Of a stretch of DNA of 64,000 nucleotides, positions 1,419 through 52,412 are shown one piece after another. Position 1 is the stretch's first letter. Every line of letters begins with the position of its first letter. Position numbers and translations under genes: made by a program. This DNA is from Oscillospiraceae bacterium (GTDB lineage: Bacteria; Bacillota; Clostridia; Oscillospirales; Ruminococcaceae). The stretch spans positions 17,829 to 81,828 of the forward strand of contig JAFTYW010000036.1 of the NCBI GenBank assembly GCA_017461245.1, read 5' to 3'. A model generated the notes under the pieces. It was not told the origin of the DNA. It was given only the letters and a program-made list of their open reading frames with translations, and did not search any database.

Positions 1419-1783
1419 TTTCTCCCCTCCTCATACTCTTTGACCATTCGGCGAAGCTCGTTAACCTCCTCGTCTGTAAGGGCTTTTCTTGCAGTAAAGG
1501 CGGCAAGAAATGCGGGAAGCGAGCCGTCAAAGGTGTCCTCAACGAACTTCTCGCTCTGAATGGCGTAAAACTCCTCTCTCGAAATGAGAGCGGTAACTGT
1601 GCTGTTCTCGGTTAAAAAGATACCTCTCTCGCAGAGCTTTTTTAAGACTGTATAGGTAGTAGTTCTCTTCCAGTTTAAGTTTTCCTCGCAAAGTTTTATA
1701 AGCCGTTTTGTTGTAAGCGGCTGATTCTGCCATACAATATCGGCGAACCTTGCCTCAACTGCTCCGAGTTTTGCGTTTTCCAT
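1415..1783 (-). CDS. BlaI/MecI/CopY-family winged-helix transcriptional repressor
   Basis: 122 aa with the typical length and N-terminal wHTH region (ARFADIVWQNQPLTTKRLIKLCEENLNWKRTTTYTVLKKLCERG). It is translationally coupled to the M56 gene downstream. Confidence 0.85.
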   Translation of the reverse strand: MENAKLGAVEARFADIVWQNQPLTTKRLIKLCEENLNWKRTTTYTVLKKLCERGIFLTENSTVTALISREEFYAIQSEKFVEDTFDGSLPAFLAAFTARKALTDEEVNELRRMVKEYEEGRK

Positions 1784-2013: not shown

Positions 2014-2133
2014 TTATTCCCAATCATCATCAGGAAGCACTACCTCATTTTTACCACCGCTTGTTCGGATAACATCACGCGCGGTTATTAGGGTTACCTC
2101 CATCTCGGGCTCAATATACTGTTTAGTTTCCAT
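2014..2133 (-). CDS. Unannotated 39-aa acidic small protein, co-transcribed with the giant gene
   Basis: It falls below the ORF-track size cutoff. ATG at 2133, TAA at 2016-2014. The SD AGGGAGAG sits 5 nt upstream, within the 12-nt gap after the giant-gene stop. The peptide is METKQYIEPEMEVTLITARDVIRTSGGKNEVVLPDDDWE. The terminator follows about 50 nt downstream. Confidence 0.55.
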   Translation of the reverse strand: METKQYIEPEMEVTLITARDVIRTSGGKNEVVLPDDDWE

Positions 2134-8100: not shown

Positions 8101-11100
8101 CTGCTCTTCAGTAACCTCGGTCTTAAACATATACTCTCCGTTTACATCTACACTGTCCTGATTATAGAACTTAGCGGTAGCTTTTTCGGTTGTTGTCCAT
8201 CTGGCCATACCCCAATAATATCCTGTTCCCTGAGGCTTATTCCAGCCGGTGTTATTATAGCTGATATTACCATCATCGCCAGGCTCGGGAACGGTAAAGA
8301 TATTTTTGTGATTTACAAGTGCAGGCTTAAGCTCGCCGTAGGCCTCGCCGCAGACATCGCATATTGCCTTCTCGGTCTCGGTTGCGGTGCCGCCTGTGTG
8401 GACGCCTGTTGCTGCAATGGTCGAACCTGTTGCGATCTTGGTGTTACAGTCAAGGCACCAGGTGTCGCCTGTATAGCCACCATCAACACAGGTTGCATCT
8501 GCTGCATCTCTGATTTCGGTATTCGCGTGATTAGTTGTGTCTACCTCACCGTATTCCTCACCGCAAAGTGCACAAACTGCCTTATTTATACAGGTTGCTG
8601 TTCCGCCTGTATGCTCGCCTATTGCAGAGATTACAGTGCCCGTTGCTATCTGGGTGTTACAGTCAATACACCAGGTATCGCCTGTATATCCATCATCGAC
8701 ACAGGTTGCATCTACTGCATCTCTGATCTCGGTGTTTGTGCCGTGAGCTGTAGTGTCAAACTCACCGTATTCCTCACCGCAAATCGTACAAACAGCCTTT
8801 TTGCTACAAGTTGCAGTTCCGCCTGAGTGAACTACATCTGCAAAGGCAACGGCGTGAACACTGTTAAACTGCTCTTTGTCGCTGAATACTACAATATCGC
8901 CGAGATAGAGAATCTTGTTGTCCCAGTCGCTGACACTATCATCAAATAAATGGGTGTCCGCACAGGTAGACTCATCATGCATAAATATCTGAATGCTTGC
9001 GACGCTTTCAGTCCAGATAGTTTTGCCATCATAGGTTTCGCTACCATAAGTCACACCGTCAGAAGCACTCATCGGGAATACTACCCAACCGTCAAACTCG
9101 CCCGTAAAGACGAGGTTGTATCCAGTCCATTCGGGGTCAATAACGGCTCCCGTCACCTTGTCAATGAGATAGGCTTCACTTAAATCTTGGATAAGCCTAT
9201 TAGAAGTGATACTACCATCGAGATTTACACCACTCCATAAGAAGAATGAACTCTTCTTATTTTCATCATTAAGCTCATCGATCTTAACTCTTATACCAAC
9301 ATAATTAAGGTTAGTTCTATCGATAGAGCTATGAAGTCCTGCCTCTGTTTCGGTCGCTCCGTTAAGATTGGCAATGCCACCATTATATGTGATTGAGTTT
9401 ACAAGGAAAGCCTGGTTTACGCAGCCTCTATCGGTACCTGCTTTTTCGTGTCCATCAGGATAGACCTCGCATTTATCAAGCTCGATAAAGGTTTCGCCAT
9501 GGATATTTTTTAAGAACAATCGCGAATAAGATACTGTTGATGTATGGGTTCCGTCCTCATTTTTAGCAAGAGCATAACTACCAGGCCAGCCCATATCTCG
9601 TTTTCCTAAAAGGGATTCATTCCACGCAAGATAAGGATGAGCTGAAATATCGTCATAGACATTCATAAAATAGCTTGCGCCGTCGCCCTTATGTGTGCTG
9701 TAAGGCGCGGTCCAAACCTCTTTGGATACTATGTTTGTCGACTCGGGATATTTAGCATAAATGGTATACTTTACATCCTTAGGAAGACTTGTTAAGGTTG
9801 CATTAAATGCCTCAAGGCTGAGCCAATTCTCCTCTGCGGCATCCTTATCCAGCGAGTAAACAAGTCCGGTTTTTGTGCTGGATACTGTAATAGAGGTTTC
9901 GGTTGAGGTAACCTCAAATTCCACAGTGAGAAGCTCGCCGTAAGACGCGCCGCAGACCTCGCATATTGCCTTCTCTGTTTCTGTTGCGGTGCCACCTGTG
10001 TGAGCTCCTGTAGCTTCTCTTGTCCAATCACAGTTGTTACAGGTGGAATCGCAATCGCCGCTGTAGGTATGCTCACCTGTGCAGGTGTTGTAGTGCCAGG
10101 TTGCATTTAAGAGGTTGTTATTATCTGAATCCTCATAAATGTAAATTTCGGCTTTCTGTGCTTCGGTGCCGCCATACCAAACATCTGTAAGTGATACACA
10201 TTCACTAAATGCATATTCGCCTACGCTTGTTACGCTGGCGGGAATCGTGATGCTCTTGAGAGAGCTACAACCGTTGAAGGTCGTTACAGCTATTTCTGTT
10301 ACGCCGTCAGGAATTATAATGCTGGTAAGTGCAGAACAGTACACGAACAAGCCGCCGCCTATACTTGTTACACCATCAGGAATTATAATGTTTTCAAGAG
10401 ACGAACAGCCTTCAAATACCTGCCATCCTATACTTGTTACGCTATCGGGAATTGTAATGCTTGTAAGCGAAGTACAGAACTCAAATAAATCGTCTGATAA
10501 ATGTGTTATTCCGTTAGGAAGTGTAACGCTTGTAAGCGAGGTGCAGCCATCAAATGCAAGGCGTTCTATGCTTGTTACGCTGTCAGGAATTGTAACACTT
10601 GTAAGCGAGGTGCAGCCAACAAATGCCTCAACACCTATGCTTATTACGCTGTCAGGGATTGTGATGCTTGTAAGAGAATTACAATGCAAAAACGCAGAAT
10701 CGCCTATGCTTGTTACACCATCAGGAATTGTAACACTTGTAAGTGATTCGCAATAACTAAATGCATTATTGCCAATTGCGGTCACCTTATAGCCGTCGAT
10801 GGTTGAGGGAATGGTAAGCTCGGTTTCTGAGCCTGTGTAATCGGTTATCTCAATTGTTCCATCTTCTAATACATTGTAGGTGTACTCATTTAAATAATGC
10901 CAGGTTGCATTTAAGAGGTAGTCATTGCTTGCGCCAAAGGTGATATTTTCTTTATCTGCCTTGGTGCCGTTATACCAAACGTCTGTGATAGCGGTACAGC
11001 CTAAAAACGCGTATTCTCCTATAGATGTTACGGTATTAGGAAGCACTACGCTTGTAAACGAGGTGCATCCTTCAAATGCACAGGCATTTATGGTTGTTAC

Positions 11101-14100
11101 GCTATCGGGAATTACTAATTCAGTAACAAGTTCACCATTGAGGTAAAGATTTTTTGCATAATTTAACGGGTTATTGCCAAAAGTGCCATACTCAATAGCG
11201 CACCACGCTGCAAGGTCGGAGATATCCACCCTTGTAAGAGCAGTACATTCATCAAAAGCTCCGGCTATGCTTGTTACGCCTTTTCCAATAGTTATGCTTG
11301 TAAGCGAGCTACAAGAATGGAATGCCCATTCATCTATGCTCATTACGCTATCGGGAAGCACAATGCTTTCAAGCGAGCTACAACCATAAAATGCAGAATT
11401 GCCAATGCTCGTAACACTATTTCCAATAGTTATATTTTTAAGTGAACTACATTCTTGGAATGCATGGTCTCCAATGCTCGTTACACCGTTTCTAATGGTT
11501 ACACTTTTAAGTGTGTCACAACCCAAAAAATAACTATCGATATTGGTTATACCACTTCCAATTACAACTGTTTCGAGTTTGGGGAAATTCCAGAAAGCAT
11601 CGCTAATACTGTCGAGGCTTGTTACTCCATCTCCAATTACTAAACTTGTAACAGAATCGCAACCAGAAAATGCACTATCTCCTATTTCTGTTACGCCGTC
11701 TCCAATTACTAGGCTTGTAACAGAATCGCAACCCATAAACGCAGTGTCTCCTATACTTGTTACGCTGTCAGGGATTATGATGCTTTTAAGTGATTCACAG
11801 GAGCAAAATGCATCATAACCTATACTTGTTACGCCTTCAGGAATTGTGACACTCTCAAGCGACTTGCAATCATAAAATGCATTGGCTCCGATGCTTGTAA
11901 CTCCTTTTCCAATGGTTACAGTTTCAAGATGATAGCAAAGAGAAAATGCATCATCGCCTATACTTTTTATACCATCAGAGATCGTAACACTTTTAAGGGA
12001 ATCGCAATGACAAAATGCCTCTGAGCCTATGCTTGTCACTGTATATCCATCTATAGTTGAAGGAATAACAACTGCAGATGCCGATTTGCTCCATCCTGTA
12101 ATTTCTATGGTGCCGTCAGCAAGCACAGAATAGGTAAACTCTGAGGGCAACAGACCATATTCCTGTCCGCAAGCATCACAAACAGGCTTCTCTGTATCTG
12201 TTACTGTTCCACCTATATGTGCTCCTGTTGCAGCAGTAGTCGTACCGGTTCCAGTCTGTGTGTTACAATTAAGGCACCAGATGTCTCCTGTATAACCGGT
12301 TGCACCACAAGTTGCCTCTGCAATGTTTCTGCGTTCGGTGCGGGTGTGAACTGTAGTGTCAACCTCGCCATATGACATACCACAATCAGTACATACTGCT
12401 TTTTCAATACAGGTAGCCGTTCCGCCTGTATGGTCAGCTGCTCCAAAGATTTCTCCGCAGGAGCAGGTGTAGAAATGCTGAGTGTCGTTAGTTTCAAACT
12501 TATCGTCTGCATCAACGTGCACGCCTGTGGCTTCAATAACTGTACCGGCCGAGAGCTGTGTTTCGCAAACAGTACACCAGGTATCGCCTGTATAGCCATT
12601 TTCAGAGCATGTTGCAGCTGTCGCATTTCTGATCTCTGTTATGTGAGAGTCGGTATATTCAGCACCGCAAATCTCACATACTGCCTTTTCGGTACAGGTA
12701 GCATCACCTATGTGACCGTTTGAACCGCAGGCATATTCCTCTAAAAAGCCTGTAGTGTCCTTTAAAATATGCATATTGCCAAAGTAAACAGTTCTGTTAT
12801 CCCAGTTATCTGTTTCGCTGCTTACTCTGAGCGCAAATCCAATTCTCTTTACAGCAGTGATCTCTGTTTTGAACGAGGTTGAGGGCACAATGATCCAGCC
12901 GTCAAAATTATACGGAATCGCAAGTGTTGTTCCGCTTTCAACGGTTGTTATACTGCTATCGTTGAAATCAACAAGCTTTACATTTGTAAGATCGGCAGGA
13001 TAACCGTTAGCCTCATTCACGCCGCAATGCAATGACAATGTAGAGGTTGTGTCTGCGCTGCCGCCTGTCATCTTAAAGCGGATAGCTATAGCGTTATAGT
13101 CTGCCACATCAAAATGAAGTGCTTCAAGAGTCTGCTCACCGTAAAGCTGTCCCTCATATGTTCCGCCCGTTACTGTATTATCTGCATTAGCATTAAAGTT
13201 AACGCCAAGCTCATAGGTTGCGGGAAGGAAGGTTATATTATAGTTCTTTGCGCCCGCTGTTGCAAAGCTTAAGGTGTCATCCAAGGTCTTAGTAAAGAAA
13301 TTCTCGCCGTTTAAGGTTACACTGGTAAAACGGCTAAAATAATCTGCTGTTGTCCATCTTGTAAGACCCCAATAATAGCCCGCTCCTTTAGGTTTATCCC
13401 AGCCGGCATTGTTATAGCAAATAAAGCTATCATCGCTCGGCTCTGGAACTGTGAATATGGGTTTGTCATTTGTTACTGTTGCATCAAGCTCACCATAAGA
13501 TGCTCCACACACCTCACAGACCGCCAGTCTGATTTCGGTCGCAGTTCCGCCTGTGTGGTCAGCCACATCAAGCTTTCCGCCGCAGGAGCAGGAATGGTAG
13601 TGCTGGGTCTCGTCATAAGACCATTCGCTGCTTACGTCGATATGATTATCAGTGTCTAATTCGCCGTATGATACACCACAAACAGAACAAACTGCCTTTT
13701 CCTTACAGGTTGCAGCTTTGCCTGTGTGATCAGCTACATCAAAGGTCTCGCCGCAGGAGCAGGTATAGAAATGCTGGGTATCGCTTGTTTCAAGCTTACC
13801 GTCTACATCAATGTGCTCACCGGTCGACTCAACGACCTTACCTGTTGAAAGCTGGGTATTACAGTCAAGACACCAGGTATCTCCTGTGTAGCCGTCCTGT
13901 GTGCAGGATACCTGTGTTACGTTTCTGATCTCGGTGTTGGGGTGGGTCGTGCCGTAGGACTCTCCGCAAACCTCACATACCGCCTTTTCGGTACAGGTCG
14001 CAGTTCCGCCTGTATGGCCTACCGCGCCGCAAACGTGAACGCTCTTAAACTGTTTTTCATCTTCAAATACTACAATGTCACCAAGATAGAGGATCTTGTC

Positions 14101-15903
14101 GTCCCAACCATCGATACTATGGGACTTACTATCGTGGCAAGGAGTTTCAGCATTGATTCCATTATGCATATAGAGATGAACGGAAAGTGAGCCATTACTG
14201 CTGCTACCGTTAGTAATATTGTCCTTGCCGTAAATGTCAAGAGGAACAACTACCCATCCATCAAAAGCGCCCTCAAAGATATAGTCTTTAGAGTTCCAGT
14301 TTTTCCAACTGTCAGGAGTACTGACGGCACCTGTTGCCTTATCGATCATATAGGCAGTGCCCAAAGTAGAGGTCATATTTCTTGCATTGATATAGAGATA
14401 AAAGCCGCTTGTTTTATTGTTCTCGTCCTCAATCTTAATTCTGATTGCCATATAATTAAGATCAGTTCTATCAATAGAGCTGTGGAGTCCTGAGGTGCTA
14501 ACAGAACCGTATGTAATAGCATCAGCTAAAACAGCCTGGTTTACGCAAGATGTTATCTCTTCGTTCTTGTCGAACTCGATAAAGGTTTCTTTGTTTCCCT
14601 TTGCATCGGCAAACTCTCTTATATGCAGAGCAGCTTCGTTCTGACCCTTCATATATGTGGTTTCATCATTATAGTACTTACAGAGTGTACCACTGCTTGA
14701 AGGCCAGCCAAGCTCTTGTATTCCAGCAGGTGAGATGTTCGCTTTGTATGTGATATATGGATTCTTTGTGATGTCATCATAGACATTCATAAAGTAGCTT
14801 GCGCTATCGCCCTTATGTGTGCTGTAAGGAGAGGTCCATATTTCTTTAGATGCAATTTTTGTACCGCCCACATACTTTGCATATATGGTATACTTAGTAT
14901 CTTTTTCAAGATCCGTAAGTGTTGCATTAAATGCGTCAAGCGCAAGCCAAGCGCTATCCCCTGCATCTTTATCGAGCGAGAAAACAGCGTCAGCATCTGT
15001 GCTGGTTACTGTGATGCTATTATCTGTAGAAGTCAGTTCAAATGACGGCATTCCCATAACGGTCTTTCTGAATGCATCAGCGTCCTTGACTATCATCATA
15101 TCGCCGAAATAAACACTTCTATTGTCCCAGTTATCAGTTTCAGAATTTACCATAAATCTGGGCGCAACTCTTTTAACCGCGTCAATTGTTGTTGAAAACG
15201 CGCTTGAGGGCACTATGATCCAGCCATCAAAGTTATAAGGAATGCTTATTGTTGTAGCGCCGTCAGCAACAGTTGTTGTTTCATTGCTGTTTAAATCAAT
15301 AAGCTGTGTACCTGTGACGGCAGGCGCATTTCCCGTGCCTGTACCAAAATACAATTCCATAGTAGAGGCAGTTGTTTCCAAGCCGCCTGTCATCTTAAAG
15401 CGCAAAGCTATGTAATTGTAATCAGCAGCATTGCTGTAAAGCGCACTGATAGCCTGTTCACCGTAGAGTTCACCAGCATAGGTTCCTCCCTCTACAGTAT
15501 TATTCGCATTAGCGCTAAAATTAACATTGAGCTCATAGGTTACAGGAAGAAATGTAAGTCTATGATTTGTTGCTCCTGTTGTAGCAAAGCTACCTGCGTC
15601 ACCAAATGTGTACTTAAAAAAGTTTTCACCATTTTCGGTTACACTGGTTGTGTACCTAAAAATTCCTCCGGCTCCTTCAGATGTTGTCCATCTGCCAACA
15701 CCCCAATGATAACCGTTGGCTTCGGTCGCTCCGGAGGGACGCGAGTTGTTGTACGAAATATATCCGTCCACACCCTCGTCAGGAACAGTAAAGATGGTTG
15801 CAGCATTTTCAGTTGTTTCTACTGTGGCCGCAAAAACCGAAAAAGGAATTGCGTTAAGCAGCAGAACTACACTAAGAATAACTGCCAGAATTTTCTTCTT
15901 CAT
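2146..15903 (-). CDS. Giant (4,585 aa) secreted multi-repeat surface/adhesin-like protein with BspA-type LRR arrays, Cys-rich repeats and prealbumin-like repeats
   Basis: An uninterrupted 13,758-nt ORF with SD AAGGAGAGG before the ATG. Sec signal peptide MKKKILAVILSVVLLLNAIPFSVFA/ATVE. The modular repeat structure is described in the sub-features and findings. I saw no LPXTG, SLH, dockerin or C-terminal TM segment. Confidence 0.95.
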   Translation of the reverse strand: MKKKILAVILSVVLLLNAIPFSVFAATVETTENAATIFTVPDEGVDGYISYNNSRPSGATEANGYHWGVGRWTTSEGAGGIFRYTTSVTENGENFFKYTFGDAGSFATTGATNHRLTFLPVTYELNVNFSANANNTVEGGTYAGELYGEQAISALYSNAADYNYIALRFKMTGGLETTASTMELYFGTGTGNAPAVTGTQLIDLNSNETTTVADGATTISIPYNFDGWIIVPSSAFSTTIDAVKRVAPRFMVNSETDNWDNRSVYFGDMMIVKDADAFRKTVMGMPSFELTSTDNSITVTSTDADAVFSLDKDAGDSAWLALDAFNATLTDLEKDTKYTIYAKYVGGTKIASKEIWTSPYSTHKGDSASYFMNVYDDITKNPYITYKANISPAGIQELGWPSSSGTLCKYYNDETTYMKGQNEAALHIREFADAKGNKETFIEFDKNEEITSCVNQAVLADAITYGSVSTSGLHSSIDRTDLNYMAIRIKIEDENNKTSGFYLYINARNMTSTLGTAYMIDKATGAVSTPDSWKNWNSKDYIFEGAFDGWVVVPLDIYGKDNITNGSSSNGSLSVHLYMHNGINAETPCHDSKSHSIDGWDDKILYLGDIVVFEDEKQFKSVHVCGAVGHTGGTATCTEKAVCEVCGESYGTTHPNTEIRNVTQVSCTQDGYTGDTWCLDCNTQLSTGKVVESTGEHIDVDGKLETSDTQHFYTCSCGETFDVADHTGKAATCKEKAVCSVCGVSYGELDTDNHIDVSSEWSYDETQHYHSCSCGGKLDVADHTGGTATEIRLAVCEVCGASYGELDATVTNDKPIFTVPEPSDDSFICYNNAGWDKPKGAGYYWGLTRWTTADYFSRFTSVTLNGENFFTKTLDDTLSFATAGAKNYNITFLPATYELGVNFNANADNTVTGGTYEGQLYGEQTLEALHFDVADYNAIAIRFKMTGGSADTTSTLSLHCGVNEANGYPADLTNVKLVDFNDSSITTVESGTTLAIPYNFDGWIIVPSTSFKTEITAVKRIGFALRVSSETDNWDNRTVYFGNMHILKDTTGFLEEYACGSNGHIGDATCTEKAVCEICGAEYTDSHITEIRNATAATCSENGYTGDTWCTVCETQLSAGTVIEATGVHVDADDKFETNDTQHFYTCSCGEIFGAADHTGGTATCIEKAVCTDCGMSYGEVDTTVHTRTERRNIAEATCGATGYTGDIWCLNCNTQTGTGTTTAATGAHIGGTVTDTEKPVCDACGQEYGLLPSEFTYSVLADGTIEITGWSKSASAVVIPSTIDGYTVTSIGSEAFCHCDSLKSVTISDGIKSIGDDAFSLCYHLETVTIGKGVTSIGANAFYDCKSLESVTIPEGVTSIGYDAFCSCESLKSIIIPDSVTSIGDTAFMGCDSVTSLVIGDGVTEIGDSAFSGCDSVTSLVIGDGVTSLDSISDAFWNFPKLETVVIGSGITNIDSYFLGCDTLKSVTIRNGVTSIGDHAFQECSSLKNITIGNSVTSIGNSAFYGCSSLESIVLPDSVMSIDEWAFHSCSSLTSITIGKGVTSIAGAFDECTALTRVDISDLAAWCAIEYGTFGNNPLNYAKNLYLNGELVTELVIPDSVTTINACAFEGCTSFTSVVLPNTVTSIGEYAFLGCTAITDVWYNGTKADKENITFGASNDYLLNATWHYLNEYTYNVLEDGTIEITDYTGSETELTIPSTIDGYKVTAIGNNAFSYCESLTSVTIPDGVTSIGDSAFLHCNSLTSITIPDSVISIGVEAFVGCTSLTSVTIPDSVTSIERLAFDGCTSLTSVTLPNGITHLSDDLFEFCTSLTSITIPDSVTSIGWQVFEGCSSLENIIIPDGVTSIGGGLFVYCSALTSIIIPDGVTEIAVTTFNGCSSLKSITIPASVTSVGEYAFSECVSLTDVWYGGTEAQKAEIYIYEDSDNNNLLNATWHYNTCTGEHTYSGDCDSTCNNCDWTREATGAHTGGTATETEKAICEVCGASYGELLTVEFEVTSTETSITVSSTKTGLVYSLDKDAAEENWLSLEAFNATLTSLPKDVKYTIYAKYPESTNIVSKEVWTAPYSTHKGDGASYFMNVYDDISAHPYLAWNESLLGKRDMGWPGSYALAKNEDGTHTSTVSYSRLFLKNIHGETFIELDKCEVYPDGHEKAGTDRGCVNQAFLVNSITYNGGIANLNGATETEAGLHSSIDRTNLNYVGIRVKIDELNDENKKSSFFLWSGVNLDGSITSNRLIQDLSEAYLIDKVTGAVIDPEWTGYNLVFTGEFDGWVVFPMSASDGVTYGSETYDGKTIWTESVASIQIFMHDESTCADTHLFDDSVSDWDNKILYLGDIVVFSDKEQFNSVHAVAFADVVHSGGTATCSKKAVCTICGEEYGEFDTTAHGTNTEIRDAVDATCVDDGYTGDTWCIDCNTQIATGTVISAIGEHTGGTATCINKAVCALCGEEYGEVDTTNHANTEIRDAADATCVDGGYTGDTWCLDCNTKIATGSTIAATGVHTGGTATETEKAICDVCGEAYGELKPALVNHKNIFTVPEPGDDGNISYNNTGWNKPQGTGYYWGMARWTTTEKATAKFYNQDSVDVNGEYMFKTEVTEEQVAQVTYLPVTYELNVCYNATADNTAAGGTYEGELYGVQPISALYSDAADYNYVAIRHKIVGDTETPAYIHVGTTNANTGKCDWQNVVLINYTDNTCITITESSTTYNIPANFDGWIIVPQSQFYNSTAIENVTAVGFRYLSDTNGKTFYTGDMKIVKALDEFKGDYTGCENGKHTGGTATCSKKAVCAVCGEEYGELDTTAHGTNTEIRDQLAATCLENGYSGDTWCLDCNTIIEEGNIVPLLGHGPNTAIKGRIEATCGEDGYTGDTWCYDCNTVIETGTTIAATGAHSGGTATCINKAVCTVCGTSYGELDASAHGTNTEIRDAVNATCVDEGYTGDTWCLDCNTVIETGTTIAATGEHTGGSATETQKAVCDVCGQEYGDYAVSSDYTYNVLEDGTIEITGYTGSETELTIPSTIDGYKVTGIGNEAFYRCDSLTSITIPDGVTSIGGGTFGECSSLVSITIPDSVTSIGNGVFLNCFALTSVIIPDSVTSIGVSVFYNCSSLTSITIPDSVTGIGDYAFYNCSSLTSITIPDSVTTIGSDAFGGCYSLTSIVIPEAVTAIYDNTFYGCYSLTSITIPDGVTSIGDSAFEGCSALKDITIPDSVTSIGDFAFCECSAFKDITIPDSVTGIGDYAFCNCTSLTSITISNSVTTIGEYAFSECVSLTDVWYDGTEADKENITFGTDNEYLLNATWHYNTCIGEHTYSGDCDSSCNNCGWTRTVEVDHTYDNACDAVCNACGNTREVSGHTGGNATCSKQAVCEVCGVSYGELDAANHGTNTELRNAVEETCGADGYTGNVVCKDCGTILEKGTVISATGAHTGGTATETEKAVCEVCGASYGNYSNEADFEYTILANGTAEITGYIGDATEVIIPPSLDGHKVTSIGVAAFYNNDSITKVVIPNGVTILNSQAFYECTALAQVVIPNSVKTVDDFAFYGCTSLKRVTIPNSVTSMGVAVFENCSSLITVKLSSKLDNISASLFSNCPNLTSIVIPEAVTTIYDNAFYGCSALTQLTLPDSVEYIYYSAFTGCSSLDNVVIPENTVLESAAELFPLTTVLMVYENSPAHNYAVEFDHPYHVINKTENPDVSYGTSVGGTVKYTDGTAATGLTVQMVYADGKVKETVTTDATGKFSFTYVEIGDYTIKVTDVNGNSASSKISVKRMNDTDVFVEGDVELKLEKSYSISGTVSEGNSKVTVTDENGNVIVSVTTDANGNFTIDNLPNGSYVITAETENGSVTQEITVHNGTVTDITLEIPAESATIWGYVEIEDRDKGHNRRKWIQVTLYNQDGVAVAQCKSNSQGEYRFENVPLGNYSIVAETAEMRPDKKHGFDRNHALKGYAYVTVEAVGLIQAETIVLYEENDHLATVAGKVTAQGEAQISEVILRDVFYNEIARCTTTNNGKYVFKNVRDGMYFVTAITESYGMSFAVVVVRDGKVYGNTDIFVKKSDKIKDREDKFKNDIPELKDRNEAANYRDRIAEEKRHYDALSDKEKKQLSKEYVDRLNKYLEWLSNVTYNAVTDNENEKVTVENGGLALSGDNIENKEEITFTINVTKTDGHTASTDGIKNEQDFIHHSMQDTAGEKEIKQYYEISMTKTSGDEETKITNVYKDTGAKGKFRITMDIPEEYRGYKHYNMLHVHNGEVVTLADLDDDPNTITFEVDRFSTFALTATDETLSVEGADLKFSGASLTLQDNLAINYKVKKSLFEENGYSDPYVKFVLNGKETVVSEYRVDGDKYIFDFTDIAPYQMNDTIYATLYANFGNTLNESETREYSVAEYCYNMLNKYSADAYAEFRTLLVDLLNYGAETQTYQSYRTDALVNASLTETQKAWGTAEDPTLESVMNKEYATIENPTVTWKGAGLNLRDSITLRFKLYAENIQNLTVKITTEDGEKWTIKSREFEKTEDNYYVYFDCLSAAQMSEAVYVTVYNGDVAVSNTICYSIESYAYTKQNDEDENLSKLVKAMMKYGNSACVYYELINQ
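3775..4830 (-). repeat. Four tandem prealbumin / CarboxypepD_reg-like (Cna-B-like) beta-sandwich repeats inside the giant CDS
   Basis: Each unit carries G(T/K)V...(D/N)xxGxxxxxxxV.L......T(T/D)xxGxFxFxN(V/L)xxGxYxI, for example GTVKYTDGTAATGLTVQMVYADGKVKETVTTDATGKFSFTYVEIGDYTIKV. Confidence 0.7.
4860..5575 (-). repeat. LRR array 4 (BspA/LRR_5-type, about 23-aa / 69-nt period) inside the giant CDS
   Basis: Repeats of the form IPNSVTSxGxxAFxxCSSLxxVxI following ...FEYTILANGTAEITGYIGDATEVIIPPSLDGHKVTSIG. Confidence 0.8.
5575..6010 (-). repeat. Cys-rich repeat block V inside the giant CDS
   Basis: EHTYSGDCDSSCNNCGWTR, DHTYDNACDAVCNACGNTRE, GHTGGNATCSKQAVCEVCGVSYGE, TELRNAVEETCGADGYTGNVVCKDCGT, AHTGGTATETEKAVCEVCGASYG. 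Confidence 0.8.
6030..6950 (-). repeat. LRR array 3 (about 12 units, 69-nt period) inside the giant CDS
   Basis: IPDSVT(S/G)IG(D/N)xAFxxC(S/T)SLTSITI units. The array ends with ...VWYDGTEADKENITFGTDNEYLLNATWHY. Confidence 0.85.
6958..7610 (-). repeat. Cys-rich repeat block IV inside the giant CDS
   Basis: Alternating HTGG(T/S)ATCxxKAVCxxCGxxYGE and TEIRDxxxATCxxxGY(T/S)GDTWCxDCNTxIExG units. Confidence 0.8.
8312..8850 (-). repeat. Cys-rich repeat block III inside the giant CDS
   Basis: VHSGGTATCSKKAVCTICGEEYGE, TEIRDAVDATCVDDGYTGDTWCIDCNTQI, EHTGGTATCINKAVCALCGEEYGE, TEIRDAADATCVDGGYTGDTWCLDCNTKI, VHTGGTATETEKAICDVCGEAYGE. Confidence 0.8.
9935..10090 (-). repeat. Cys-rich repeat block VI (short) inside the giant CDS
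   Basis: NTCTGEHTYSGDCDSTCNNCDWTREATGAHTGGTATETEKAICEVCGASYGE. Confidence 0.75.
10110..10890 (-). repeat. LRR array 2 (69-nt period) inside the giant CDS
   Basis: The array starts at YTYNVLEDGTIEITDYTGSETELTIPSTIDGYKVTAIGNNAF and ends at ...LLNATWHYNTC. Confidence 0.85.
10915..12150 (-). repeat. LRR array 1 (about 16 units, 69-nt period) inside the giant CDS
   Basis: The array starts at FTYSVLADGTIEITGWSKSASAVVIPSTIDGYTVTSIGSEAF. The run cttgtaacagaatcgcaacc recurs exactly 69 nt apart, at 11645 and 11714. Confidence 0.85.
12153..12735 (-). repeat. Cys-rich repeat block II inside the giant CDS
   Basis: GHIGDATCTEKAVCEICGAEY, TEIRNATAATCSENGYTGDTWCTVCETQL, DTQHFYTCSCGEIFGAADHTGGTATCIEKAVCTDCGMSYGE, TERRNIAEATCGATGYTGDIWCLNCNT, AHIGGTVTDTEKPVCDACGQEYG. 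Confidence 0.8.
13470..14045 (-). repeat. Cys-rich repeat block I inside the giant CDS
   Basis: GHTGGTATCTEKAVCEVCGESYG, TEIRNVTQVSCTQDGYTGDTWCLDCNTQL, DTQHFYTCSCGETFDVADHTGKAATCKEKAVCSVCGVSYGE, ETQHYHSCSCGGKLDVADHTGGTATEIRLAVCEVCGASYGE. Confidence 0.8.
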
Positions 15904-16121: not shown

Positions 16122-16757
16122 TTATTTACTGTGTTTTTTGTAATGAATATAGGAGTACGCTATGGGAACTACAAGCGCAGCAGCGATAACAGGAAAGAAT
16201 ATAAATGGATTTTGCAAAAATGCAGTCAAAAGCGTTATTAGGCCCGCTATTACCATACAAAATCCTGCAAGGCGGTGGGTCTTGTTCCAGTTATCCTCGT
16301 CGTCTAGCGCCCATGGCACCTTTATGCCAAAGGTATAATTCTGTTTTGCTTTAGGGAGCAGATTTCCCATCACCACAAGCAAAGCGCCTATCAGCAACAG
16401 ACAAACAAAGCCGACATTTATATTTACTCCCAAAGCCATAGCGTAAATTACCGACATAACAACAAGCGACACCGACGGGATTATCCAAAAAACCATACCG
16501 AGCGGCTTTTTGCCTATGTTTTTGTGCTTTGGGTCAAGCGAGGTTACTACAAGGCAGAAAAGATGCAAAGCCGCCATAACAAGCGGAATACCGAAAACCG
16601 CAAAGCCTTTACTGCTCCAGCCGTTTGCATTATTATCTATACCGAAATGGGTTGCAATGGTTTCGGGCAGTTTATCCCAAAGAATAAGTCCAACAAAGAT
16701 CGGCAAAAGAATTGCGAGCGTTGATATAACTGTTTTAAGCTTATTTTGTTTGATCAT
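16122..16757 (-). CDS. sdpI: SdpI/YhfL-family membrane immunity/signal-transduction protein (DUF1648 + SdpI domains)
   Basis: A polytopic membrane protein with ...HFGIDNNANGWSSK... and ...NYTFGIKVPWALDDEDNWNKTHRLAG... motifs typical of SdpI. I prefer the ATG at 16757 (MIKQNK...), which has SD GGAGGA 7 nt upstream, over the track start at 16772. Confidence 0.8.
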   Translation of the reverse strand: MIKQNKLKTVISTLAILLPIFVGLILWDKLPETIATHFGIDNNANGWSSKGFAVFGIPLVMAALHLFCLVVTSLDPKHKNIGKKPLGMVFWIIPSVSLVVMSVIYAMALGVNINVGFVCLLLIGALLVVMGNLLPKAKQNYTFGIKVPWALDDEDNWNKTHRLAGFCMVIAGLITLLTAFLQNPFIFFPVIAAALVVPIAYSYIHYKKHSK

Positions 16758-17025
16758 CGTTTTTTCCTCCATTCAGCTCTGAAATCCAGAGCATAATCTC
16801 TTCAAGCACCGAGGCATTAAGCTCATAGTAAATGAACTTTCCCTCCCGTTTATCTGAAACGAGGTCCGCCTCTTTTAAGACCGAAAGGTGCCTTGAAACT
16901 GCGGCGCCGCTGACCTCAAAACGATCGGTTATCTCCCCTGCTGACATTCTGCCCTTTTTGAGCATATTTAATATTTCACGCCTTACAGGGTCAGCAAGCG
17001 CTCTCAACGTTTGTTGCAGGCTCAT
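16741..17025 (-). CDS. sdpR: ArsR-family autorepressor, SdpR type
   Basis: 94 aa. LRALADPVRREILNMLKKGRMSAGEITDRFEVSGAAVSRHLSVLKEADLV is a classic ArsR wHTH. It overlaps the sdpI-like gene. Confidence 0.85.
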   Translation of the reverse strand: MSLQQTLRALADPVRREILNMLKKGRMSAGEITDRFEVSGAAVSRHLSVLKEADLVSDKREGKFIYYELNASVLEEIMLWISELNGGKNDDQTK

Positions 17026-49252: not shown

Positions 49253-49267
49253 ACCTTTAAATAAAAA

Positions 49268-49305
49268 ATAAGCTTCGGGATTTTTCCGAAGCTTATTTTT
49301 TTATT
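49268..49305. terminator. Bidirectional terminator between convergent operons
   Basis: AATAAGCTTCGG / CCGAAGCTTATT followed by TTTTTT. The minus-strand peptidase stop codon (49293-49295) lies inside the stem. Confidence 0.8.
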
Positions 49306-49733
49306 ATTTTGTGATAAATTCTGCTTAAAAATGACCTTGCTTTTTTAAACGCAATCAGCGCAGGACTTATGAAAACCCACAGCCTTGAATAGAGCCGATA
49401 ACTAAAATCATTTACGGTGTAGTGCTTGTCCTTGCGGTAAAACTCGCAAAGAACTCCTACGATCTGCTCGTCTTTGACTGTTTCGCGCTCGATGCAGTTG
49501 TCGCCGCGGATTATGTAGTGGTTTTCCCTTACCCCGATAACGCGGTGAAGCACAAGGCTTTCTCCCCTGCGGTAAAGCGGAACATCGTATTTTTTAAGTC
49601 TGTCGGCGACAGGCCTTATAACAATTCTGTCGCGCCTATCGCTAAAAAGCGGCAACATACTGACGCCGCTTGTGGTGGTCACAAAAAAGCCTTTTTCCTT
49701 TAAGACCTGCTCGGCAGAAAGCTGCTCATTCAT
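49293..49733 (-). CDS. S24/S26-family peptidase, Ser/His (SipW/ER-type-like) signal-peptidase homologue with a C-terminal TM helix
   Basis: SGVSMLP (Ser27), LHRVIG (His65, where P-type enzymes have Lys) and RGDN (Asp80). A C-terminal hydrophobic segment, LWVFISPALIAF. The first ATG at 49733 overlaps the pqqD-like stop. Confidence 0.7.
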   Translation of the reverse strand: MNEQLSAEQVLKEKGFFVTTTSGVSMLPLFSDRRDRIVIRPVADRLKKYDVPLYRRGESLVLHRVIGVRENHYIIRGDNCIERETVKDEQIVGVLCEFYRKDKHYTVNDFSYRLYSRLWVFISPALIAFKKARSFLSRIYHKIIKK

Positions 49734-49995
49734 CTTCAAAAACTCCCGCCTGAAGCATTTTGTTTGCTATTTTCGCTATATCTTCCTGCGCCTTTTCTAA
49801 AGAAATTCCGTACTCCTCAGAAAGCTTTTTTGCAGCCTCTTCCTGACTCAAACCATCAGCAAAGTAGCTCCATATATCAGCAGCGGTCTGATTAAGTTCG
49901 ATCATTCCGTGAAACTCGCGGCTAAGCTCGCCTGTGCTGACAACGACTGTTGTATCCCCTATTTTTTGCATAACAAAGCCTTTTTTAATTTTCAT
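49726..49995 (-). CDS. PqqD-family protein (RiPP recognition element-type peptide chaperone)
   Basis: 89 aa. ...VVVSTGELSREFHGMIELNQTAADIWSYFADGLSQEEAAKKLSEEYGISLEKAQEDIAKIANKM... matches the PqqD wHTH size and pattern. Confidence 0.7.
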   Translation of the reverse strand: MKIKKGFVMQKIGDTTVVVSTGELSREFHGMIELNQTAADIWSYFADGLSQEEAAKKLSEEYGISLEKAQEDIAKIANKMLQAGVFEDE

Positions 49996-50728
49996 TATTG
50001 TTACCTCTATTCTTAAATTTCTGCCCGGTTAAAGCCTCAAACGAGGTTTTAACGGCGTGCTCTGATATATCACATTCCAAAACGTACACAGGCACAAGAT
50101 TTACAAGCCTTGAGAAAAGCTCAAGATTTTTCTTTGCAGCCTCTTCATTTATCGGCAGATAGATCTGATTTAATAAAACGGCGAAATACTCCTTGGGATC
50201 AACCTTGTATATTTTGTTTTCTTTTCCCCTTTTTAAAATGCAGATTGCTTTTAAAGGGGCGCTTGTGTTGCTGCCCAGCCCTTCTTTGCCTTTCCAGGCC
50301 GTTCCGTAGGCGGTAACCTCATCACTTTCAATTTTCAAAATCGGTTTGTCGCCGTTTATGACGCAAACGCTGTCGCCGAGATATTCTTGCCACAGCCTTA
50401 GGTGTGTTGTTTTTCCCGTTCCGCTCGGAGCGGTAAAAATATAAGCGCTCTCGCCGCACTTTACAGCGGCGCCGTGCATTACAAACCTGTCAAAAAGCGG
50501 CAGCTTTTCGGCAATATGGCGGTAAATACAGAGGATTTCAGCGTAGTCAAAGGTCGTTCTGACCTCTGCTTCCTCTATTTCCCTCAAAACCTCGTCGCGC
50601 TCCGCCTTTGCAAATATATCAGCATCGGTTTTCTGGGTTAAATAATCAGCACAAAACTTTTCTGCAAAGGGAGAACTACTTTGGATATTTACTGTTTTTT
50701 CTGCAAGCTCAATGTAAAAATCTGCCAT
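49985..50728 (-). CDS. HPr-kinase/phosphorylase-like P-loop protein (HprK-related peptide-kinase family)
   Basis: 247 aa with P-loop APSGTGKTTH, then ...INGDKP..., and a strong SD AAGGAGAGGGAG. Confidence 0.6.
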   Translation of the reverse strand: MADFYIELAEKTVNIQSSSPFAEKFCADYLTQKTDADIFAKAERDEVLREIEEAEVRTTFDYAEILCIYRHIAEKLPLFDRFVMHGAAVKCGESAYIFTAPSGTGKTTHLRLWQEYLGDSVCVINGDKPILKIESDEVTAYGTAWKGKEGLGSNTSAPLKAICILKRGKENKIYKVDPKEYFAVLLNQIYLPINEEAAKKNLELFSRLVNLVPVYVLECDISEHAVKTSFEALTGQKFKNRGNNNEN

Positions 50729-50743
50729 GATCTCCCTCTCCTT

Positions 50744-51736
50744 TTATTCTGCCGACAAAATAAGGTCGGCAAGCTCATTCTCATTTATTCCGCCAATATG
50801 ATCCGAAACGGTTATGTTTTTAAGGCGGGTCAAAATTTCTTCTCTTTCAAATTTTGCGTCTTTAAGCTCTGCTTCAAGAGCGTCTATGCTCTTAACGCCG
50901 AAAAAGTCACCAAAAAAGCGAATGTCGCAAATTCTGCCGTCGTGGGTATTTAAGTGGCACTCGACTATGCCAAAGGGATATTTCTTCTCGGTTTTGAGCG
51001 AAAAGTCGGGCGAAAAGCCGAAGTTCCACTCCCATTTTGAGTGCTTTTCCTGCTCTATCTTTTTTGCCGCACCAATATCGGCGCCAGATAAGGTGTAAAG
51101 CTTGCAATCTTTACGGCTCAAAAAGTAGTCAGCAAGCGCTTTCATAAACTGCTCGGCCGTGAGGGCACTTTTGCAAAGCTCCTTGACGTTGGTTACCCTG
51201 CTTTTTACGGAGCGCACCGCCTTATCTTCGAGCTTTTTAATATTTGGGCGCAGAGCCTTTGAAAGCGCCGAAATGTCGGCATCATAAAGCAGCGTTCCGT
51301 GCGCGAGATTTCTACCGTTTTTTACAGTCTGTGCCGTGCCCGAAATTTTCGCACCGTTTACTGTAATGTCATTTCTGCCCGAAAGCGCGGCAGAGACACC
51401 AAACTGCGAAAGAAACTCGCAAATGGGTGCAGCAAGTCGGCTGAAATCGCCGAAGCTCTCATTTTTATAGTCTGAAATCAAGGTGTAATTTATATTGCCA
51501 AGATCGTGAAAGACCGCTCCGCCGCCCGTAACCCTTCTTACAACTGTAATGTTGTTTTGCTTTACATACTCGCTATCAATCTCAGCGTAGGCGTTCTGGT
51601 TTTTACCGATTATAACAGACGGCTCATTGCGCCAAAGCATTATGATCTCGCCCTCTGTAAAGTTGTTTAAAAGGTATTCCTCAAGCGCAAGATTGAAGCT
51701 CGGCGAGGTAAACTCATTTAAGATAAATTTAGTCAT
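50744..51736 (-). CDS. lplA: Lipoate-protein ligase A
   Basis: ...RRVTGGGAVFHDLGN...GRNDI...GAKISGTAQ...HGTLL..., plus the LplA C-terminal accessory domain. Confidence 0.85.
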   Translation of the reverse strand: MTKFILNEFTSPSFNLALEEYLLNNFTEGEIIMLWRNEPSVIIGKNQNAYAEIDSEYVKQNNITVVRRVTGGGAVFHDLGNINYTLISDYKNESFGDFSRLAAPICEFLSQFGVSAALSGRNDITVNGAKISGTAQTVKNGRNLAHGTLLYDADISALSKALRPNIKKLEDKAVRSVKSRVTNVKELCKSALTAEQFMKALADYFLSRKDCKLYTLSGADIGAAKKIEQEKHSKWEWNFGFSPDFSLKTEKKYPFGIVECHLNTHDGRICDIRFFGDFFGVKSIDALEAELKDAKFEREEILTRLKNITVSDHIGGINENELADLILSAE

Positions 51737-52295
51737 TTTTCAGTTCCTCAGAAAAGGTCCTAATAAACTCGGCGGCAGGAAAGCCGACAACGTTAAAGTA
51801 ATCGCCGACGATACCCTTTACAAAACGCACACCCTTGCGTTGAATGCCGTAAGAGCCCGCTTTATCCATAGGTTCGCCCGTTTTTACATACCAGTCTATT
51901 TCCTCATCAGAAAGCTTGTAAAACTCAACCTTTGTAGAGGCAACAAAGCCCTTTTTGGTGTCCTTTGAGCAAACGAAAACCCCCGTTAGCACCTCGTGAG
52001 TCCTACCCGAGAGAGTTCTCAGCATATTTTTAGCGTCCTCTTGGTCCTTGGGTTTGCCGAGAGCCTTTGAATCGAGCACAACAACGGTATCCGCACCGAC
52101 AACGACGGCATCGGGATCACCTTCAAAAATATCCTCTGCCTTTGTGCGAGCCGAATTTAAAACAGCCTCTTTTACATCCTCGCCGTCTTTCATTGGCGGC
52201 TCTTTTGATGAGGGCTTTATCTCAAAAGACAGCCCCAGCTGCTCAAATATTTCTTTTCTTCTCGGCGACGCCGATGCCAAAATGAGCCTTTTCAT
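51729..52295 (-). CDS. maf: Maf-family nucleoside-triphosphate pyrophosphatase
   Basis: LILASASPRRKEI...GADTVV...AGSYGIQ. Confidence 0.9.
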   Translation of the reverse strand: MKRLILASASPRRKEIFEQLGLSFEIKPSSKEPPMKDGEDVKEAVLNSARTKAEDIFEGDPDAVVVGADTVVVLDSKALGKPKDQEDAKNMLRTLSGRTHEVLTGVFVCSKDTKKGFVASTKVEFYKLSDEEIDWYVKTGEPMDKAGSYGIQRKGVRFVKGIVGDYFNVVGFPAAEFIRTFSEELKND

Positions 52296-52328
52296 CTTTT
52301 CACCTTTTAAAAATCAAATATATAATTA

Positions 52329-52357
52329 ATTGTATCATACACTTATTCATTTTTCAA
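52329..52357 (-). promoter_or_regulatory. Candidate promoter of the maf-lplA-(kinase-pqqD-peptidase) operon
   Basis: The minus strand reads TTGAAA, a 17-nt spacer, then TACAAT, directly after the ferredoxin terminator. Confidence 0.55.
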
Positions 52358-52377
52358 GGGCAAGGTGATACAAAGCA

Positions 52378-52412
52378 AACGGGCTCCTGCCACACGGCAG
52401 GAGCCCGTTTTT
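52378..52412. terminator. Intrinsic terminator after the ferredoxin gene
   Basis: AAACGGGCTCCTGCC / GGCAGGAGCCCGTTT with a 5-nt loop. Confidence 0.75.

Follow-up and report, generated by a model that had tools for sequence, protein, structure and literature searches.

A three-gene cassette of Oscillospiraceae as a probable clostridial relative of the linear polyphosphorylated peptide machinery, predicted to act in trans on dispersed precursors

Introduction

What does a peptide maturation cassette act upon when no precursor gene lies beside it? The question is raised by three overlapping genes at positions 49293–50728 of a 64,000-nucleotide stretch of DNA (hereafter the window; contig JAFTYW010000036.1, assembly GCA_017461245.1) from a metagenome-assembled genome (MAG) of an Oscillospiraceae bacterium. 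The genes encode a P-loop protein related to HPr kinase (HprK), a PqqD-family protein and a serine–histidine peptidase. An initial annotation, made from the sequence alone, described them as a precursor-less cassette that recognises, phosphorylates and cleaves a substrate encoded elsewhere, and as a composition for which its author knew of no characterised system. The analysis presented here indicates that the trio is probably the core maturation machinery of a ribosomal peptide pathway akin to that of the linear polyphosphorylated peptides (LPP), acting in trans on leader-bearing peptides whose genes lie at other places in the genome. The observations behind this reading are the gene content, folds and catalytic motifs of the cassette, its homology to LppB and LppS, and a precursor family together with its genomic linkage.

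LPP were described by Popov et al. (Nat Commun 2026; PMC13381572) from Paenibacillus alginolyticus DSM5050. The cluster, lppA-K-B-S-D-N, encodes the precursor LppA, the HprK-like kinase LppK, the LppB protein as a discrete recognition element (RRE) for peptides that are ribosomally synthesized and modified post-translationally (RiPPs), the enzyme LppS of the archaeal signal peptidase I (SpI) or SipW-like type, the MsbA-like exporter LppD and the NTP_transf_5 protein LppN (PMC13381572). Upon expression in Bacillus subtilis, LppK places one to four phosphates on core residue Ser3 and LppS cleaves after T-1. Cleavage was nearly lost upon deletion of lppK, the unphosphorylated precursor being a poor substrate, and deletion of lppN had no visible effect (PMC13381572). 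In vitro LppS requires LppB and cuts only LppA that is presented by the RRE, with the S29A, H68A and D93A variants each inactive (PMC13381572). The ‘HprK kinase’ group of that study comprises TIGR04249, TIGR04352 and TIGR04355, and about one third of its SpI loci co-localise with lasso peptide genes. LPP are described in Bacilli only, and their final products and biological role were left unknown (PMC13381572).

Results

Composition of the cassette

The cassette consists of three genes.

49985–50728, minus strand: LppK-like P-loop kinase gene (ScmC/HprK-related family), 247 aa, intact open reading frame (ORF)
49726–49995, minus strand: LppB-like discrete RRE gene (PqqD family), 89 aa, intact ORF
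49293–49733, minus strand: LppS-like leader peptidase gene (S26B, SipW/Sec11-type Ser-His), intact ORF

The stop of the kinase gene and the start of the RRE gene overlap by 11 nt (49985–49995), and the stop of the RRE gene and the start of the peptidase gene overlap by 8 nt (49726–49733). In the NCBI annotation of the MAG (locus tags IJ027_...) the products are named ‘hypothetical protein’, ‘PqqD family protein’ and ‘S24/S26 family peptidase’, respectively. A lasso cyclase, B2 protease, SPASM radical S-adenosylmethionine (radical-SAM) enzyme, MsbA-type exporter and NTP_transf_5 protein were all absent among ORFs of at least 150 aa in the 64-kb window, where the sole radical-SAM gene is RlmN. 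By Pfam annotation, ORFs of this size outside the trio and the precursor loci are housekeeping and transport genes only.

Searches of PDB sequences with phmmer gave no meaningful match for the kinase or the peptidase, and folds were therefore assigned from AlphaFold2 (AF2) models and Foldseek. The kinase model (mean predicted local distance difference test score, pLDDT, 92.9) matches ATP-dependent phosphoenolpyruvate carboxykinase (PEPCK) and HprK/P. The Walker A motif APSGTGKTTH occupies residues 100–109, and homologues carry the Pfam domain PF27840 ‘ScmC’. Among 21 family members, 13 match TIGR04352 (HprK-related kinase A) and 16 weakly match TIGR04249 (ScmC; best E 3e-6), both of them models of the ‘HprK kinase’ group in PMC13381572. 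Residues H85-G86, S102..K106-T108-H109, N125-G-D127-K-P and G147-K-E149 are invariant, corresponding to the family forms HG, APSGxGK[TS]TH, INGDKP and GKE. This order of a His-Gly pair, P-loop and acidic motif follows the layout of HprK. The family comprises more than 1000 protein clusters and extends beyond peptide maturation cassettes: ScmC-type kinase genes also occur alone, with neither RRE nor peptidase, at L003/L004 (6001–6705) and about 15 more loci, and one solitary gene sits between PGA_cap (capsule synthesis) and HAD hydrolase genes.

The 89-aa protein scores above the gathering threshold of the Pfam PqqD model PF05402 (E 7.9e-12), and the lasso_PqqD models for lasso-peptide RREs match it weakly. 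A PDB sequence search with the window RRE did not return the LppB–leader crystal entries 9x8z and 9x90, the best match being the lasso RRE TfuB1 (E 0.018); residues were therefore mapped onto the LppB sequence given in Supplementary Data 1 of PMC13381572, which also supplied the LppS sequence for comparison. The window RRE and LppB align without gaps at 22% identity. Residues N35, Y62 and D72 correspond to N33, Y60 and D70 of LppB, which fix the kink at the leader Pro and the Tyr hydroxyl (PMC13381572), and the position of LppB F74 is occupied by I76. Comparison of the window RRE with PbaB1, the RRE of a paeninodin-type lasso system, revealed no similarity.

The peptidase spans 146 aa from an ATG, as in NCBI entry MBQ8869175.1, or 148 aa from a TTG two codons upstream (49739). 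Across 25 homologues the motifs G23-x-S25-M-x-P28, H63-R64 and G77-D78-N79-C80 and residue E84 are invariant. A Pfam search found no match to the protein, and TIGR02228 (archaeal-type signal peptidase I) scores 21.5 bits (E 1.7e-4), below its cut-off of 51.85 bits. The AF2 model (pLDDT 88.4) adopts the S24/S26 fold and matches signal peptidase, LexA and UmuD. Identity to LppS is 24%, and the family profile matches LppS at 39.9 bits with S25, H63 and E84 aligned to S29, H68 and D93. The best match within PMC13381572 is an Oscillospiraceae (Ruminococcus) SpI of sequence similarity network (SSN) cluster 9 (40% identity, E 1e-27), which is tabulated there beside an RRE. Overall, clusters 9 and 4 are closer to the peptidase than is the LPP cluster 1 (24–34% identity, E 1e-6 to 1e-11). 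The peptidase family exceeds 1000 protein clusters. No hydrophobic segment or membrane anchor is present at the N-terminus of the sequence. The C-terminal helix (residues 110–144) is weakly hydrophobic, with a maximal 19-residue Kyte–Doolittle mean of 1.16, and a transmembrane segment is therefore not established. At locus L001 (9405–12641) a second, ordinary Peptidase_S24/S26 gene (SipW-like, 189 aa) lies a few kb downstream among unannotated proteins of 220–300 aa; this region may be a TasA/SipW-type matrix module beside the LPP-like cluster.

Much of the initial description of the cassette was upheld by these data. The three overlapping minus-strand genes, the 247-aa HprK-type P-loop protein, the PqqD family of the second product and the lack of a lasso cyclase, B2 protease and exporter were all recovered. 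For the peptidase, the Ser-His SipW-type family and motifs stood, but the length of 147 aa and the residues Ser27 and His65 proved to be a mixture of the 146-aa and 148-aa numberings, and the proposed C-terminal membrane helix was not borne out.

Recurrence of the trio and selection

A scan of kinase loci with one genome per species yielded 80 loci, 45 of which keep at least 4 kb of flank on both sides. Within 4 kb of the kinase gene, a PqqD gene was present at 29 of the 45 loci, a peptidase gene at 26 and the complete trio at 25. Given that all three genes occur together at 25 of 45 flanked ScmC-type loci, the trio is not a chance juxtaposition. The complete trios are accompanied to varying degrees by an ABC exporter (10 of 25), an NTP_transf_5 gene (eight), a recognisable precursor within 6 kb (seven) and a SPASM-like radical-SAM gene (one). 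Ten are ‘trio only’: neither a precursor nor an exporter nor an NTP-transferase could be recognised within 6 kb. They include the window and L087 (81% identical); the bare trio is also kept in the relative L089.

Two more distant, syntenic relatives have a fuller arrangement. In L001 (60% identity) the order is PSP1–ferredoxin–maf–lplA–[842-aa secreted protein]–[46-aa ORF]–kinase–RRE–peptidase–NTP_transf_5, and in L088 (76% identity) it is lplA–...–[1564-aa protein]–[43-aa ORF]–kinase–RRE–peptidase. Elsewhere the trio occurs in unrelated contexts without lplA. When compared with three orthologues, dN/dS was 0.07–0.12 for the kinase, 0.07–0.12 for the RRE and 0.10–0.17 for the peptidase, with similar values for lplA. 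With dN/dS of 0.07–0.17 in all three genes, the cassette is maintained by purifying selection. At four loci the longest ORF matches two cassette families, and these may be gene fusions: kinase with peptidase at L064 (9809–10951) and L081 (4195–5346), PqqD with kinase at L015 (9986–11011), and peptidase with NTP_transf_5 at L029 (1143–2690).

A leader-peptide family and its member in the window

A tblastn search of the window with the 46-aa peptide of L001 identified a short ORF 47 kb from the cassette (E 4.8e-7), the product of which matches the hidden Markov model (HMM) of the peptide family at E 1.5e-15.

2014–2133, minus strand: candidate precursor gene (LppA-like), 39 aa, METKQYIEPEMEVTLITARDVIRTSGGKNEVVLPDDDWE, found by tblastn and the family HMM
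1928–1960: hairpin terminator after the precursor gene, 14-bp stem between A and T runs

The ATG follows the stop of a giant gene by 12 nt and has a strong Shine–Dalgarno sequence, AAAGGGAGAG, 5 nt ahead of it. The peptide possesses the YxxP motif and the invariant Ser of the family (S25), and is the likely substrate of the trio. The ORF is called in the ENA/Logan gene predictions and missing from the NCBI annotation of the MAG, so that annotation-based mining would label the genome precursor-less.

The peptide family was built by iterative searches, with a 24-member peptide profile used for the cluster search. It comprises 234 protein clusters, every one labelled ‘hypothetical’, and neither NCBIfam nor Pfam holds a model for the peptide. 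The genes occur in up to four tandem copies and frequently lie directly upstream of the kinase gene. The leader follows the consensus MKKxYxxPExE[VI]xxFxxxD[VI]ITxS, in which the Ser is invariant, and the core is hypervariable and mostly acidic. The stretch from the Pro to the junction is one to two residues longer than in LppA. In nine of 25 precursors, including that of the window, the invariant Ser is the last Ser or Thr. If the phosphate stays on the product, the invariant Ser must therefore be the acceptor, and the cut must fall N-terminal to it.

A second orphan precursor, MNKKYLDPEMNITLFESVDVITASGDPDTNLPGLDEDDTQNYDNLVNI (IJ027_02570, protein P0260), is annotated in the same MAG. Its counterpart in the related strains L091/L092 (10001–10147) is located 5 nt past the gene of a 3077-aa protein and beside addAB, with no cassette near it at those loci. 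One kinase–RRE–peptidase cassette appears to serve several dispersed precursors. The term ‘precursor-less’ holds in that no precursor adjoins the window cassette, but not for the genome, which encodes the 39-aa leader-bearing peptide 47 kb away as well as IJ027_02570. It is further weakened by the peptide genes immediately upstream of the trio in the syntenic loci L001 and L088.

At L027, L038, L040, L048 and L071 a gene for a radical-SAM protein of about 450 aa (CxxxCxxC, SPASM-like) is added, and the cores at L038 and L040 are rich in Cys, for example ...TTSGGCETWSSQNGYECYGG. The leader, RRE, kinase and peptidase appear to form a chassis that is combined with other chemistries.

Precursor genes adjoin genes for giant secreted proteins

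Directly upstream of the candidate precursor is the gene of a giant secreted protein.

2146–15903, minus strand: giant secreted protein gene, 4585 aa, with an N-terminal signal peptide and LRR_5 and Ig-like repeats
2149–3078, minus strand: conserved unannotated C-terminal domain of about 300 aa, the last part of the giant protein

In a tblastn search the C-terminus of the 842-aa protein of L001 matches the 4585-aa ORF directly adjoining the precursor. The same C-terminal domain is common to the peptide-linked proteins of L001, L088, L092, L035, L049, L025, L014, L018, L085 and L093–L099, and the 3077-aa protein that precedes the IJ027_02570-type peptide also ends in it. Eight members searched against Pfam gave no consistent match, with a borderline hit to Stap_Strp_tox_C in the window copy only (one of eight), and PDB sequences gave no match. 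The domain was found in 5571 representative proteins (E <= 1e-3), nearly always at the extreme C-terminus.

At 13 or more loci the peptide gene lies between -6 and +46 nt from the end of a same-strand ORF of 468–4585 aa, and at all of these except L064 it is downstream of the large ORF. Where a protein has the C-terminal domain, its gene is almost always followed by a leader-peptide gene within about 50 nt. The C-terminal domain is present at nine of 12 surveyed loci pairing a peptide with a large protein, as well as at L092. An independent sample was formed of eight metagenome contigs picked by the C-terminal domain alone, using a four-sequence alignment. A leader-peptide ORF was located 8–25 nt downstream of the large gene in six of these contigs, and the kinase and RRE were present on just one of the eight. 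Five of the six cores (SGGIELPDDEW, SGIELPDDQW, SGGGIVLPDDEW, SGGDGGVVLPDHDWE and SDGIELPDDEW) resemble SGGKNEVVLPDDDWE of the window peptide. A subfamily with a conserved core ending in ...[IV]xLPDD[DE]W(E) comprises the window peptide (2014–2133, minus strand) and those of L093 (8904–9011), L094 (5756–5860), L095 (2681–2803), L098 (321–473) and L099 (348–455). The conserved LPDD core suggests a conserved function of the mature peptide tied to the neighbouring giant protein. Such a pairing seems not to be reported in PMC13381572, which notes just co-location with capsule loci. What is new here is that precursor genes directly follow genes whose giant secreted products have a C-terminal domain in common, the mechanism itself having already been demonstrated in the sister family.

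Genomic neighbourhood

The surroundings of the cassette contain the following features.

49263–49301: two-way hairpin terminator serving the cassette and a convergent AAA_18 kinase gene, 18-bp stem between A and T runs
50744–52357, minus strand: maf and lplA genes upstream of the trio, from Pfam/NCBIfam-type models and synteny
52329–52357: promoter-like site before maf-lplA, 10/12 match
52377–52410: terminator just before the promoter-like site

The stop of lplA is separated from the start of the kinase gene by 15 nt. Given this gap and the promoter-like site (52329–52357) placed directly after a terminator, maf, lplA and the trio probably form one transcription unit. A tract of 1426 bp (50373–51797) is 100% identical to the related strain L089; it spans the whole of lplA together with ~355 bp at the start of the kinase gene. 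In its flanks about 8–25 positions in every 100 bp differ, and the tract resembles the product of a recent recombination, one boundary of which falls within the kinase gene. Divergence from L089 had suggested the cassette as a hypervariable island, and this was rejected; the oddity is the 1.4-kb identical tract in a background that is otherwise about 10% different. The giant-protein and peptide gene pair is flanked downstream by a gene for a BlaI/CopY-family repressor (1415–1783, minus strand) and upstream by one for an SdpI/YfhL-family membrane protein (16122–16772, minus strand).

Discussion

Proposed mechanism

The kinase activity, phosphosite, RRE dependence and cleavage position in the following scheme are drawn by homology from the LPP system. 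The RRE would bind the YxxP motif of a precursor leader, for example that of the 39-aa product of 2014–2133. The HprK/PEPCK-fold kinase would then transfer phosphate from ATP, perhaps more than once, to the invariant Ser of the leader–core junction (S25 for the window precursor). While the RRE presents the leader, the SipW-type peptidase may cut a few residues N-terminal of the junction Ser to release a short acidic phosphopeptide, roughly (T)pS-GGKNEVVLPDDDWE. The scissile bond (after DVI or DVIT) is not transferable with confidence, given that the leader departs from the Px9Fx[T/A] pattern. The locus encodes neither an exporter nor an NTP-transferase, and the precursor genes are dispersed, each beside a giant surface-protein gene.

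Comparison with known systems

The window cassette and the LPP cluster share a core trio of a kinase that in the window is probably HprK-related, a discrete PqqD-type RRE and an archaeal-type SpI or SipW-like Ser-His-acid peptidase, with no macrolactam cyclase. In both, the precursor combines a YxxP leader and a conserved Ser near the junction with a variable core. The Ser, His and acidic catalytic residues and the RRE residues that hold the Tyr and Pro are kept in the window proteins, and the table of PMC13381572 too lists precursors encoded elsewhere in the genome. The initial view that no characterised system has such a composition is therefore outdated, as the LppK–LppB–LppS core of lppA-K-B-S-D-N matches the trio and is a characterised pathway with a known type of substrate. 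The logic of recognition, phosphorylation and cleavage with a substrate encoded elsewhere, which had also been proposed initially, fared better and has been demonstrated for this homologous system (PMC13381572).

The differences are also clear. The host belongs to the Oscillospiraceae (Clostridia) whereas LPP are from Bacilli, and the best match of the peptidase lies in SSN cluster 9, which is unstudied, not in the LPP cluster 1. The leader of the window peptide ends in ...FxxxDVIT-x-S, compared with ...IxFET-xx-S in LPP (full motif YxxPxVLxHQxIxFETxxS). LppN is absent from the 64-kb window, and the precursors adjoin giant surface-protein genes whereas LPP genes are found in capsule loci. The window system is thus probably a clostridial, minimal, trans-acting variant of LPP, from a sister clade that is listed but unstudied in PMC13381572.

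The remaining comparisons are more distant. Paeninodin-type lasso clusters (PadeK/ThcoK, split B1/B2, cyclase C) likewise use an HprK-like kinase to phosphorylate a precursor Ser and a discrete B1 RRE to bind a [Y/W]xxP leader, often with an NTP_transf_5 gene nearby. The window differs in having no Asn-synthetase-like cyclase or transglutaminase-like B2 among its ORFs of at least 150 aa, in its serine SpI-type leader peptidase, and in an RRE that resembles LppB more than PbaB1. Among curated models, those of SynChlorMet (ScmC, TIGR04249) and HPr-rel-A (TIGR04352/TIGR04355), cassettes that were defined by comparative genomics, come nearest to the kinase family. The TIGRFAMs descriptions of these models pair such P-loop proteins with PqqD-family proteins. 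The SynChlorMet partners ScmE and ScmF (radical-SAM/SPASM) are missing from the window, and a literature search for ScmC/SynChlorMet found no relevant papers and no experimental characterisation. HprK/P proper has only the fold and the P-loop layout in common with the window kinase. The peptidase shares the Ser in GxSMxP, the His in HR[VI], GDN and the fold with SipW, Sec11 and archaeal signal peptidase I (MEROPS S26B). It differs in having no N-terminal anchor and in falling below the TIGR02228 cut-off, and its target would be an RRE-presented leader in the cytoplasm, not Sec signal peptides.

Weighing the evidence

Several points weigh against a role of the trio in an LPP-like pathway. Direct comparison, which covered LppB and LppS, gives the RRE and peptidase just 22–24% identity to these proteins. 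The window kinase itself matches TIGR04249 only weakly (E 0.11; 11.8 bits against an equivalog cut-off of 125) and has no match to Pfam Hpr_kinase_C (PF07475) at E <= 0.1. In the window leader, F follows P by seven residues rather than the ten of LPP and the junction reads DVIT-x-S, so that the Px9Fx[T/A] pattern is lost. The exporter LppD is absent from the 64-kb window, and the candidate precursor, at 47 kb, is tied to the cassette by homology and synteny only. Furthermore, the clostridial SpI entries of clusters 4 and 9 were filed with ‘RRE others’ and not analysed in PMC13381572, and the evidence on the clade consists of sequences and models.

The trio could instead tailor another RiPP class encoded elsewhere, such as a paeninodin-type phosphorylated lasso peptide or a radical-SAM peptide, with the peptides of 39–48 aa not being substrates. 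Lasso clusters in Firmicutes typically have HprK-like kinases and PqqD RREs, the SpI loci that co-localise with lasso genes in PMC13381572 (about one third) fit the same picture, and a few related loci hold SPASM-type radical-SAM genes and Cys-rich cores. The portion of the genome inspected is also limited to 64 kb. We nevertheless consider this improbable, as no cyclase, B2 or SPASM enzyme was found in that window, the RRE aligns with LppB and not PbaB1, and the leader-peptide family lies directly beside the trio at many loci without lasso genes. Still less likely is that a larger lppAKBSDN-type cluster has decayed here to an inactive remnant by losing precursor, exporter and NTP-transferase. 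Three intact ORFs with coupled starts, dN/dS values (0.07–0.17) like those of the neighbouring housekeeping gene lplA, and retention of the bare trio in L087, L089 and 10 of the 25 complete trios from diverse genomes all argue against decay. The genome also keeps precursor genes at other places. The absence of LppD, LppN and an adjacent precursor from the locus, when the 60%-identical L001 still has both a peptide gene and NTP_transf_5 in the corresponding chromosomal position, would suit a remnant; in the LPP system, however, loss of LppN had no detectable effect (PMC13381572).

It is very improbable that the peptidase serves the giant proteins as a dedicated SipW-like signal peptidase, or that the trio is a housekeeping unit linked to maf and lplA, with the small ORFs irrelevant. 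The nearest sequence models are indeed those of archaeal and SipW-type signal peptidase I, and the giant proteins bear Sec signal peptides. The enzyme, though, has no N-terminal membrane anchor and a weakly hydrophobic C-terminal helix, its translation is coupled to that of a cytoplasmic RRE and a kinase that uses ATP, and its relative LppS cuts RRE-presented LppA only (PMC13381572). Probable co-transcription with maf and lplA would agree with a housekeeping role, but elsewhere the trio is found in unrelated contexts without lplA, and in L001 and L088 the genes for a big protein and a peptide are inserted between lplA and the trio. A trans-acting, LPP-like maturation core remains the preferred reading of the cassette.

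Implications

In Clostridia of the gut and rumen, an LPP-like sister clade that has a leader motif of its own is widespread, and its processing core appears able to work as a bare three-gene cassette. Its substrates are scattered and physically tied to giant surface proteins, with cores that are co-conserved with the C-terminal domain of those proteins. Given this dispersal, genome mining for such RiPPs must include unlinked precursors. The pairing of precursor and giant protein is a testable lead on a cell-surface or adhesion function. Tentatively, and as a possibility we rate as doubtful, LPP-like phosphopeptides in Oscillospiraceae and related Clostridia could be, instead of free-standing natural products, dedicated partners (ligand, anchor, signal or regulator) of this very large class of giant secreted proteins, with one unlinked cassette serving several pairs across the chromosome. 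If true, this would provide the first functional handle on LPP-type peptides.

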